A stretch of DNA of 64,000 nucleotides from positions 736,001-800,000 of the forward strand of contig CAVRJY010000001.1 of NCBI GenBank assembly GCA_963721805.1, written 5' to 3'. The notes under the pieces were generated by a model. The model ran no database searches, was not told the DNA's origin, and worked only from the letters and a program-made list of their open reading frames with translations. Of the stretch, positions 8,302-36,400 are shown one piece after another (position 1 is the stretch's first letter; each line of letters opens with the position of its first letter). The DNA is from Nitrospirota bacterium. Lineage in GTDB: Bacteria > Nitrospirota > Thermodesulfovibrionia > Thermodesulfovibrionales > JdFR-86. The position numbers and the translations under genes are program-made.

Positions 8302-9114
8302 ATGAACGCGCGGAGCTTTAAGACCGAGGAGCACTTTGTAACCGAAGAGCCTTACTACCTCCCCTCCGGGGACGAGATACGCCTTTTCGAGGCCGCGTAT
8401 GGCTCGCAGATCCCGGTGTTGCTGAAGGGCCCGACCGGGTGCGGCAAGACGCGCTTCATTCACCACATGGCCTGGAGGCTCAAGCGCCCTCTCGTCACCA
8501 TCTCCTGCCACGACGACCTCACGACCTCCGATCTCGTCGGGCGATATCTGATTCAGGGCGGCGAGACCGTATGGGTGGACGGCCCTCTGACCGCGGCGGT
8601 GAAGGCCGGGGGCATATGCTACCTCGACGAGATAGTCGAGGCGCGCAAGGACACGACCGTCGTCATACACCCGCTCGCGGACGACCGCCGCATACTCCCG
8701 ATAGAGAAGCTCGGCATGCTCATCGTCGCCCCGCCTGAGTTCATGCTCGCGATCTCGTATAACCCCGGCTACCAAAGCGTTATCAAGGACCTCAAGCAGA
8801 GCACGCGCCAGAGGTTCCTCGCGATAGAGTTCGCGTACCAGACCCCCGAGCGCGAGGCCGAGGTGGTTTCGCACGAGTCCGGCGTGGACGCGGATGCCGC
8901 ATCGAGGCTGGTCGGGTTCGGCCGCAAGACCCGCAACCTCAAGGATCGGGGGCTGGTAGAGGGCGCGAGCACGCGGCTGATGATACACGCCGGAAGGCTC
9001 ATGCGCTCCGGCATCCCCGCGCGTGAGGCCCTGCGCGCGGCCGTGATCTCCCCGCTCAGTGACGATCAAGAGATGCTGGAGGCGCTGGAGCAGCTGGCTT
9101 CGTCGTTCTTTTAA
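8302..9114 (+). CDS. CbbQ/NirQ/NorQ family MoxR AAA+ ATPase
   Basis: LLKGPTGCGKTRF, YLDEIVEARKDT, SYNPGYQS..KDLKQSTRQRF, GASTRL. Confidence 0.95.
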   Translation: MNARSFKTEEHFVTEEPYYLPSGDEIRLFEAAYGSQIPVLLKGPTGCGKTRFIHHMAWRLKRPLVTISCHDDLTTSDLVGRYLIQGGETVWVDGPLTAAVKAGGICYLDEIVEARKDTTVVIHPLADDRRILPIEKLGMLIVAPPEFMLAISYNPGYQSVIKDLKQSTRQRFLAIEFAYQTPEREAEVVSHESGVDADAASRLVGFGRKTRNLKDRGLVEGASTRLMIHAGRLMRSGIPAREALRAAVISPLSDDQEMLEALEQLASSFF

Positions 9115-34526: not shown

Positions 34527-36233
34527 TTACGGGTGCGTCAGGCGCGGCAGCGTGACCCTGAACTCCGTGCCGCCCTCGCCGAGCACTTCAATCTCGCCGT
34601 CCATCTGAGTGGCGAGTGACCTTACGAGCGACATCCCGAGCGAGTCGGTCTTGCTTATATTGAAGTCCGGGCGTATCCCGGCCCCGTTGTCCTTCACGCC
34701 AAGCCTCCAGACGCCGTCACCGGCCTCGCGCAGGTATACCTCGATCAGCCCTGAGCGCCCTTCCGGGAAGGCGTACTTTATGGCGTTCGTCACGAGTTCG
34801 TTTATGATAAGCCCGCAGTAGTTCGCGGTGTCGACGTCCAGTGAGATCTCCGGCACGCTGGTCACGATCCTTATGTCCGGGTTTTCTAGCCTGTAGGTGC
34901 TCAGTATCTGGTCCGTGAGCCTTTGGGCAAACTCAGAGAAATCTATCCTCGATCCCTCGGGGGATTTCTGTAGCCGCTCGTGGATCATGCCCATAGCCGC
35001 CACGCGGGAGCGGCATTCGTTCAGGAGCTGCTTGGCGTCCTCGTCCTCGGTGCCGTGCGACTGGAGTTTCAGCAGGCTGGTTATCACGTTTAGGTTGTTC
35101 TTGGCCCGGTGGTTGATCTCCTGCGTGAGGATCTCCTTTTCCCTGAGCAGCTGCTCGAGCCGCAGCTCCTGGAGCTTCCGGTCCGTGATGTCCCTCATCA
35201 CGACGAGCTTGGCGAACCCGCCGTCGGGTTTCACGATCCTGATCTGGTGGCTCTCGAAGTATTTGTTCAGGTGAGCCATGTGCCGCTCCATGATCACGTT
35301 GCTGCCGCTGAAGACCTCCGCGTTGCGGCACCAGGGGCAGGGGGCGTCAAGCTTGTGCTGGTAAGCGTAGCACTTCGTGCCGCGCGCGCAGGGGCCGAAG
35401 AGCTTTTCACACGATTTGTTCGCGAACTCTATCTCGAAGTCCTGGTTGGTGATGTTTACGGCGTCGAGCATCGAGTCGTATATGAGCTTGAAGTGCTGGA
35501 ACCCTTCATCAGTCTTAAGCAGGGAATTGAGCTTGTTCTGGAGCGTCTTAAATTCCGTGATGTCGTCGCCGATGAGCACGAAGCCGCCGTCGCCCCCGGC
35601 GGGGATCAGGCTGACCTTCCACCAGGCGTGGTAATCGTTGCGGATGCGGACGGCCTCCATGGTGCGTTCCTCGCCCTGAAGCACGCGCTTCATCTCGGCC
35701 TCGGCCAGCTCCCGGAACTCATCATGCCAGATGTCCTGAAACCGGCTCCCGAGGATCTCGTCCCCGGCCCCCATCTTCTTGAGGCCTTCCCTGTTGATCG
35801 TCAGGCATGTACCATGCCTGTCAAAGGTCATCGCTCATATCGGGGCGAAATTCTCGATTATCCGGTTGCCGAGGCCCTCGTCCGTGGCGCGCCGGGGCTC
35901 CCTGGCCTCTTTCGCTATATGGATGAGGGCGGTCATGTCGCCCTTCTGGTCGAACTGGGGGATCGCCCTTAGCTGTATGAACTTCCCGACCTTCGGCTCG
36001 AAGTACTCGTGAGCTATCTCCTTCTTCGTCTGCCAGCAGCCGCAGCTCAGGCAAAACTCGGGAGGGGCGTTGAGGCCGTGATAGTGGCTGTAGCATTTTC
36101 CGGCCCTCTGGGGGTCGATCGCGAAGAAGGCCTCGGCCGCCTTGTTGGCGTACAGGACGTTAAAGTCCCTGTCGTGGACCGTGATGGAGTCCGTCAGGGA
36201 AAGGAAGGTGTCTAAGAGATTAACTTTTCCCAT
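34527..36233 (-). CDS. Triple-PAS histidine kinase (HisKA_2 type) interrupted by an in-frame TGA at 35835-35837
   Basis: ORFs 35835-36233 and 34527-35831 are in the same frame; EINHRAKNNL H-box, NELVTNAIKYAF, DNGAG, SLGMSL. Confidence 0.8.
35802..35820 (-). promoter_or_regulatory. SECIS-like stem-loop just 3' of the in-frame UGA
   Basis: CAGGCATG-GTA-CATGCCTG starting 15 nt after the UGA on the minus strand. Confidence 0.4.
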
Positions 36234-36400
36234 ACCGATGGTGAACGGCTATCCCCCTCCTGTGTGAATATTAGCCTTATCGCAACTGTTAAGTCAATGA
36301 TTTTCATGCCGCCCGGCGGCGGCTGGCGCGAGGGGGCGTTCAGTGCGCCCGGCCGCCGGGGACGGGGCGGTTGCAGCCCCATATATCTCCTTATTACTAT

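Follow-up and report, generated by a model that had tools for sequence, protein, structure and literature searches.

A candidate selenocysteine codon at the start of a PAS domain in a HisKA_2 histidine kinase from a Nitrospirota bacterium

Introduction

To our knowledge, nearly all known bacterial selenoproteins are redox enzymes in which selenocysteine (Sec) is the catalytic nucleophile. In this study, we describe a candidate Sec codon in a sensor kinase gene, located in a stretch of 64,000 nucleotides (nt) from a Nitrospirota bacterium of the order Thermodesulfovibrionales (GenBank assembly GCA_963721805.1, contig CAVRJY010000001.1, positions 736,001 to 800,000), which is hereafter called the window. 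At 34527..36233 of the window, on the minus strand, two open reading frames (ORFs) share one frame and are separated by a TGA codon with a hairpin just downstream. We consider it likely that they are a single gene, filed as two, that encodes a selenocysteine-containing PAS-PAS-PAS-HisKA_2 kinase.

Among described systems, the bacterial genes decoded through SelB and a selenocysteine insertion sequence (SECIS) of the E. coli fdhF type are like this locus in their in-frame UGA, their hairpin of 6-8 bp, the G in its loop and the full sel machinery in the genome. According to the rule given for SelB-type SECIS elements in PMC4605307, the stem has 6-8 bp and a conserved loop G is placed approximately 20 nt after the UGA, and the candidate hairpin is in line with this rule. 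The locus differs from the classical selenoprotein genes in that it encodes a signalling kinase and would carry Sec in a PAS sensor domain rather than in an oxidoreductase active site. In addition, it is without a known Cys orthologue, and an ATG occurs two codons downstream of its TGA.

With respect to kinases, the working analogy is provided by ArcB and the thiol-switch PAS kinases, in which a redox-active chalcogen linked to a PAS domain controls the kinase. The PAS domain of ArcB forms intermolecular disulfides; its cysteines, however, are located elsewhere in the PAS fold, and the chalcogen is sulfur. The HisKA_2/HWE PAS kinases, such as the LOV histidine kinases and PdtaS, have the same HisKA_2 and HATPase_c transmitter class as the candidate. 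We know of no Sec in ArcB, the thiol-switch PAS kinases, the LOV histidine kinases or PdtaS.

The original prediction for this locus, made without database searches, held that histidine kinases were not known as selenoproteins. This holds generally, with one qualification: the bSECISearch predictions for marine Deltaproteobacteria include "a histidine kinase" (Kivenson et al., 2021, 10.1101/2021.03.15.435355, PMC8318568). That case is likewise an in-silico combination of a UGA and a SECIS, for which the text of the paper, as far as it was available, gives no domain, position or sequence, and the word "kinase" does not occur in the one supplementary file obtained. Beyond this one in-silico mention, full-text literature searches returned no account of a PAS domain or kinase that contains Sec, and term searches of the main text of the GOS and Olavius selenoproteome papers returned no kinase or sensor selenoprotein. 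The present case would most likely be a novel application of an established recoding mechanism, and related genomes contain a TGA/Cys PAS module that had not been noticed before.

The interrupted reading frame

ORF1 (36233..35835, minus strand) has 132 codons and is terminated by the TGA at 35837-35835, which is followed by GCG and then by the ATG at 35831 that opens the 434-codon ORF2, the terminus of which is at 34527. Both ORFs lie in one frame, which is the top-scoring coding frame on either side of the TGA, and the junction reads ...RIIENFAPI*AMTFDRHGTCLTINREG. Read-through of the TGA yields a protein of 568 amino acids (aa), ...NRIIENFAPI-U-AMTFDRHGTCLTIN..., in which the proposed Sec is residue 133. 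These coordinates and translations agree with the prediction that only a TGA and a GCG stand between the two frames.

By Pfam, ORF1 consists of one PAS_4 domain and ORF2 of PAS-PAS-HisKA_2-HATPase_c. Taken alone, ORF2 matches PAS_4 from profile position 10 onward only; in the read-through protein, both the PAS_4 match (131-229) and the PF00989 match (123-225) cross residue 133. The stop was said to fall inside the start of a PAS domain, and it does: the TGA (35835..35837) interrupts PAS2 (residues 123-229, 35547..35867; model strands 133-137, 142-146 and 190-224) at PAS_4 profile column 7. The scores of HisKA_2 (87.6 bits), HATPase_c (48.9 bits) and PAS_4 (51.6 bits) class the product as a HisKA_2-type PAS sensor histidine kinase.

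In an AlphaFold2 model (10-row alignment, mean predicted local distance difference test score of 77), the tail of ORF1 encodes an N-cap helix at residues 120-129, strand 133-137 (A-beta) begins exactly at U133, and the next strand spans residues 142-146. According to this model, Sec133 would lie at the point of contact between the N-cap and the PAS sheet. The N-cap region is a dimer and signalling interface in many PAS kinases.

Conservation of the stop

All five ORF1 sequences (the window, P0122, P0123, P0274 and P0141) terminate at an identical ...API. The length of ORF1 is 132 aa in the window and 136-140 aa in the four relatives, which are metagenomic and come from other assemblies, on contigs of 1,007-2,593 bp. 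The identities of these homologues to the window ORF1 in alignment A3 are 89, 80 and 50%, and P0274 belongs to the 90% cluster of P0122. In the five sequences, R124, A130, P131 and I132 are invariant although the preceding linker is rich in indels; this linker and its conserved tail R....API, which corresponds to the PAS2 N-cap helix (model helix 120-129), occupy 35838..35891. The nearest relative of ORF2, P0003 (47-48% identity), is found on a different contig and opens with the same MTFDRHG; 15 of its first 20 residues match, compared with 48% identity overall.

No fused form and no form with a sense codon was found in word-based searches (986 matches from 7,998 candidates, and 4 at E <=1e-15 from 563 candidates), nor did one appear when ORF1 was the query of an exhaustive HMMER search or among 317 genomes from the order and 390 from the class. 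No orthologue was present in whole-genome searches of 41, 317 and 390 genomes, the best non-self match having at most 49% identity and covering PAS1 only. A metagenome scan with P0003 returned only paralogues of 34-36% identity, and a genome contig scan with A2 returned 30 pattern matches and no relatives. Because the ...API ends are shared, the MTFDRHG start is conserved and a fused form is absent, both halves are maintained and the stop is old. The proposal that the TGA and its surroundings should be sought in relatives was thereby answered in part, since the position of the stop is conserved at the protein level.

Four sequencing runs were mapped at 80% likeness. Run X2 contains a relative of 84-90%, and its 368-nt contig bridges the TGA site. 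Among the differences listed for this relative, insertions are confined to the linker, and no two-contig difference lies in 35799-35815, which comprises the hairpin loop and 3′ arm. Runs X3 and X4 yielded short paralogous pieces only.

The hairpin and the selenocysteine machinery of the genome

As predicted, a perfect 8-bp stem, CAGGCATG-GTA-CATGCCTG, is present at 35820-35802, and its first base is the 15th nt after the TGA. The RNA arms are CAGGCAUG and CAUGCCUG with the loop GUA; the same element (35802..35820) can be written as a 7-bp stem, CAGGCAU/AUGCCUG, with the loop GGUAC. The intervening 14-nt spacer (35821..35834), GCGATGACCTTTGA, contains the annotated ATG of ORF2 (35831-35829), a possible re-initiation codon. 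The loop G is positioned 22-23 nt past the UGA. The imperfect lower stem that had also been described is found in the predicted fold (35779..35837), where UGAG pairs with a downstream CUCA. The 63-nt fold has a minimum free energy of -20.7 kcal/mol (z -2.71), and 3 of 200 shuffled sequences were equally stable. An Rfam search returned nothing close to a gathering score, with a top match of 19 bits against a threshold of 40.

Such stems are rare in the coding sequence of this genome. A perfect stem of at least 8 bp located 8-25 nt after an in-frame coding position occurred at 101 of 42,112 sampled positions genome-wide (0.24%), and 52 of the 42,112 (0.12%) also had a G within the first two loop positions.

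The genome encodes selA, selB, tRNA-Sec and a selD gene that has its own in-frame TGA, which is the complete set that the original prediction had proposed to look for. The whole genome was also searched for TGA codons that join two stretches of one good coding frame, and eight such junctions were verified by Pfam: FdhA, MsrA, a redoxin, a peroxiredoxin, a DsrE-like protein, a glutaredoxin, the large subunit of a [NiFe]-hydrogenase and SelD. The Pfam domain spans the TGA in these genes, except in SelD, where it adjoins the TGA. Four of the eight have a stem of 5-7 bp with a GGU-initiated loop of 5-6 nt, 11-20 nt after the UGA, namely FdhA (spacer 11 nt, stem 7 bp, loop GGUCU), MsrA (14 nt, 5 bp, GGUUC), the redoxin (20 nt, 6 bp, GGUCA) and the DsrE-like gene (14 nt, 7 bp, GGUCUU). 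The peroxiredoxin hairpin has a spacer of 12 nt, a stem of 7 bp and the loop UGGCA. With a 14-nt spacer and a 7-bp stem (CAGGCAU-GGUAC-AUGCCUG), the candidate hairpin is of the same type as the genome's own GGU-loop SECIS elements and shares the GGU-initiated loop with the FdhA, MsrA, redoxin and DsrE-like genes.

A descriptor was built from these four elements, with the candidate left out (stem of at least 5 bp, 5-6 nt loop starting with GGU, spacer of 11-20 nt). Among 81,052 TGA triplets, it matched 223 with a stem of at least 5 bp, 107 with at least 6 bp and 52 with at least 7 bp (0.06%), and the rates were similar after six control triplets. An independent genome-wide scan (stem of at least 6 bp, open frame of at least 40 codons upstream and at least 25 downstream) produced 12 sites; judged by translation, coding sequence is apparent in FdhA, the redoxin and the candidate only.

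A TGA/Cys PAS module in other kinases of the order

One weak match of the whole-genome searches, in a genome of the same family (G008), is a dCache-PAS-PAS-HisKA kinase that reads ...LVETIIEATPT-TGA-IKIVDADG..., with the TGA at the junction of the PAS N-cap and A-beta, and a 5-bp hairpin with the loop UGGGAU lies 15 nt past the TGA. When this region was searched against the order's 317 genomes, nine matches containing one TGA were obtained, distributed over seven genomes. In the 20 loci that were fetched, the alignment column is TGA in 7 (L067, L069, L070, L073, L074, L081 and L084) and TGT or TGC in 13 (L068, L071, L072, L075-L080, L082, L083, L085 and L086). The TGA forms read ..AP-T-U-[VI]K and the Cys forms ..EP-[EQ]-C-[VI]K. 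In the TGA forms, a hairpin, CUGCAGA-CGGGUC-UCUGCAG or a close variant, is located 13-15 nt downstream; six of the stems have 7, 7, 7, 7, 6 and 5 bp and one is imperfect, and the loop contains GGG in 6 of the 7. The Cys forms have merely scattered stems of 2-6 bp. This alternation of TGA and Cys together with the hairpin is the hallmark by which Sec/Cys families are normally recognised in sequence data. Full-text literature searches found no published description of this PAS family.

Re-initiation is no option for the TGA forms, since the first Met after the U is reached only 12-13 codons on. They occur in several architectures (four PAS domains with kinase and receiver; three PAS domains with kinase; PAS-PAS; dCache-PAS-PAS-kinase) and in the genomes G008, G254, G237, G238, G274, G264 and G257. 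Six of these seven genomes have selA; in G008, which is 90% complete, a Sec-type selD was found and selA was not. The genome that contains the window has a member of its own, a TGC-encoded Cys form that belongs to a different HisKA_2 kinase (C1:8390-10154, Cys codon at 8804) and scores 162.3 bits against the hidden Markov model (HMM) of the family. A sequence search of the PDB with this Cys-form PAS domain returned weak matches only (3EWK, 22.6 bits; TodS, approximately 20 bits).

The candidate U of the window falls in the C/U column of this family by MAFFT, by the 20-sequence family HMM and by Pfam PAS_4 (column 7 in both). The module and the candidate have in common this PAS column after ..AP., a hairpin with a G-rich loop 13-15 nt after the TGA and the sel genes of their hosts. 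The geometry of the hairpins is also alike, with the 3′ arms in columns 30-36 counted from the U of the UGA. However, the stem sequences are unrelated, and PAS2 of the candidate is without the ...VK.. and MN.AGL signature of the module. A further difference is the Met two codons after the candidate U, compared with the 12-13 codons free of Met in the module genes. PAS2 is not a close member of the TGA/Cys family, with which it shares the U position alone; the window thus contains another kinase lineage, independent of the family, in which the stop is conserved at the same PAS position. RNAalifold was dropped as a covariation test: the ungapped alignment of eight sequences shifts the candidate by one nt and scores it as broken, because its loop has 5 nt and that of the family 6 nt.

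Interpretation of the UGA

Our favoured reading is that of one gene. SelB with Sec-tRNA(Sec) would recognise the hairpin 14 nt downstream and decode the UGA at 35837-35835 as selenocysteine, and the product would be a cytoplasmic sensor kinase of 568 aa, PAS1-PAS2-PAS3-HisKA_2-HATPase_c, with Sec as the first A-beta residue of PAS2, right after the N-cap helix. That Sec is actually inserted at this UGA is what we infer from the sequence. The selenol may act as a redox-reactive or ligand-reactive sensor or switch and, by analogy with ArcB, in which disulfides link the PAS domains of different molecules, a diselenide or selenenylsulfide might form across the PAS dimer interface. A selenenylsulfide between U133 and C142 within the A-beta/B-beta hairpin was considered and dropped, as the antiparallel register implied by the secondary structure of the model (strands 133-137 and 142-146) would set the two residues at opposite ends. 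Sec insertion in bacteria is inefficient, and therefore a free PAS1 protein is probably made as well.

With regard to the claim that a PAS histidine kinase is recoded for Sec, the machinery, the position of the stop, the type of the hairpin and the paralogous family with Cys and TGA forms lend it support, and the expected Cys orthologue is the part that did not appear. Several observations weigh against Sec at this position. The searched collections contain no Cys-containing orthologue of the kinase. The column does hold Cys in 13 and TGA in 7 loci of the paralogous PAS family, as had been anticipated; in nearer paralogues, however, it holds P, M, A, D or L, and the orthologues offer no sense codon. 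The stop of the orthologues is known from the protein ends alone, and we infer that it is TGA there. No same-strain read extends over the TGA. Run X1 contains two near-identical short contigs, both of which miss it. Against the family HMM, PAS2 scores 17.1 bits (i-Evalue 0.0025) and is the 23rd domain match among the six-frame ORFs of the genome; because the match is weak, the shared column could reflect convergence or chance. Finally, the site was originally picked partly for its hairpin, and the GGU-loop descriptor was composed after the candidate had been seen. Therefore, what the hairpin contributes as independent evidence is its GGU loop, its spacing and its rank across the genome.

A variant in which Sec insertion is mixed with termination and re-initiation would make the UGA a selenium-gated switch of architecture. 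With Sec-tRNA and SelB available, the three-PAS kinase with a selenol at the PAS2 dimer interface would be made; without them, translation would terminate after the Cys/His-rich PAS domain, which would be released as a free protein, and ribosomes re-initiating two codons on, at the AUG, would make a two-PAS kinase. We regard this variant as unlikely. If it were true, the supply of selenium itself would rewire a signalling protein, and together with the TGA/Cys module in seven other genomes, the Sec-bearing PAS domain would be a new chalcogen-based sensor class in anaerobes.

The main alternative to Sec, which we consider improbable, is that the UGA is a true stop and that a Cys/His-rich PAS protein and a PAS-PAS kinase are encoded by translationally coupled genes (UGA-GCG-AUG), an ancestral three-PAS kinase having been cut at the PAS2 N-cap/A-beta junction, with a hairpin that is incidental or tunes re-initiation. 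The features of the junction that speak for such a split also count against Sec. The ATG is two codons past the stop, and the same Met is the first residue of P0003. Moreover, TGAGCGATG is likewise found where an ordinary kinase gene meets that of its response regulator, outside the window: at C1:459007-461685, a 757-aa kinase passes through TGA-GCG-ATG into a response regulator in the same frame, with an identical nine-nt junction and without a SECIS-like hairpin. The genome contains many in-frame TGA...ATG gene pairs, ORF2 keeps the entire PAS core from profile position 10, the public annotation has two proteins, and the searched collections hold no fused or Cys orthologue. However, a split leaves unexplained a 7-bp GGU-loop hairpin at SECIS spacing, for which the background is approximately 0.06%, and the invariant R....API end of ORF1 behind an indel-rich linker. 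Nor does it account for the coincidence of the cut with the PAS column in which another kinase family has TGA or Cys. Furthermore, no Shine-Dalgarno-like sequence is found at the usual distance from the ATG, and a scan for the sigma-70-like consensus gave no promoter match at the ORF1-ORF2 junction.

If the UGA were read leakily by a near-cognate tRNA, that for Trp or Cys, independently of SelB and with stimulation by the hairpin, a minor fused isoform without selenium would result. A stable structure downstream of the stop is consistent with this mechanism, as is one tblastn alignment that sets the stop opposite the Trp of a W-E-x-T-F-D N-cap motif, with a 10-residue gap. We consider it very unlikely, for the loop and the spacing match the SelB-type SECIS elements of the same genome, and a parallel PAS family alternates TGA with Cys, which is a signature of Sec. 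An origin of the TGA from TGG (Trp) was rejected: the gap in the tblastn alignment deletes strand A-beta, and the ungapped register, Pfam and the model all place the stop at the start of A-beta. The question is moot in any case, because the stop is conserved. A pseudogene, a recent nonsense mutation (the fallback explanation of the original prediction) or an assembly error, the commonest source of in-frame stops in kinases, can be practically dismissed, given that the stop has the same place in all of the ORF1 sequences, namely that of the window and four that come from other assemblies, down to 50% identity, and that both halves are intact and conserved.

If the UGA does encode Sec in this kinase, Sec in the PAS domain of a histidine kinase would bring selenium biochemistry into signal perception. 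Sec in PAS sensors is supported here by the alternation of TGA and Cys in several genomes and by the additional, independent kinase lineage of the window, and the TGA/Cys family would offer natural Sec/Cys pairs for probing the contribution of the selenol to the sensor. There is also a consequence for annotation. Kinases of this kind would be filed as two genes or truncated at the N-terminus from a Met 12-13 codons past the UGA, and therefore genome-based tallies would underestimate both the selenoproteins and the sensor architectures of these anaerobes.

Other features of the locus and of the genome

The remaining domains of the proposed read-through gene are PAS1 (residues 12-114, 35892..36200; PAS_4, E 4.5e-7), PAS3 (residues ~247-348, 35190..35495; PAS_8 at 247-298 and the model), the HisKA_2 dimerisation and phospho-acceptor domain (residues 372-447, 34893..35120; Pfam, 87 bits) and the HATPase_c catalytic domain (residues 475-564, 34542..34811; Pfam), all on the minus strand. 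PAS1 is of a Cys/His-rich type, KCY..YHG...PP..C.SC.C, and PAS3 is a second Cys/His-rich PAS domain. Their inserts, K-C-Y-x-x-x-H-G...P-P-x-x-C-x-x-C-x-C in PAS1 and C-Y-x-Y-x-H...P-C-P-W-C in PAS3, look like a metal site. An ORF1 query matched 843 representative proteins at E <=1e-10, mainly multi-PAS kinases.

In the public annotation, the two halves are P0275 (132 aa, NCBI/ENA) and P0002 (434 aa). By the consensus scan, a putative sigma-70-like promoter, TTGACT-18-TAATAT, is located at 36268..36297 on the minus strand, approximately 35 nt upstream of the ORF1 start. The kinase is flanked downstream by a convergent panC and upstream by divergent glutamate-synthase-like ORFs, and no response-regulator gene adjoins it.

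Among the other in-frame TGA codons of the genome, the one in the [NiFe]-hydrogenase large subunit (L060, G000:C1:1235640-1237346; PF00374, 783 bits) is residue 63 and lies within the N-terminal motif R-I-C-G-V-U; the C-terminal DPCxxC retains Cys. In the known [NiFeSe] hydrogenases, Sec is located in the C-terminal motif. The hairpin of L060 is found 17 nt after the TGA and has the loop CGUGC. The DsrE-like gene (L058, G000:C1:621603-622073), with U in I-U-T-G-C, and the glutaredoxin gene (L059, G000:C2:93919-94548), with W-U-G-Y-C behind an SH3_3 domain, have Pfam domains that span the TGA, and they are probable further selenoproteins. At G000:C1:1466367 (minus strand), an in-frame TGA for which the scan found no hairpin is flanked by open frames with 500 and 278 codons (..ARPGG*GVASAADIG..), 6 kb from the tRNA-Sec gene.

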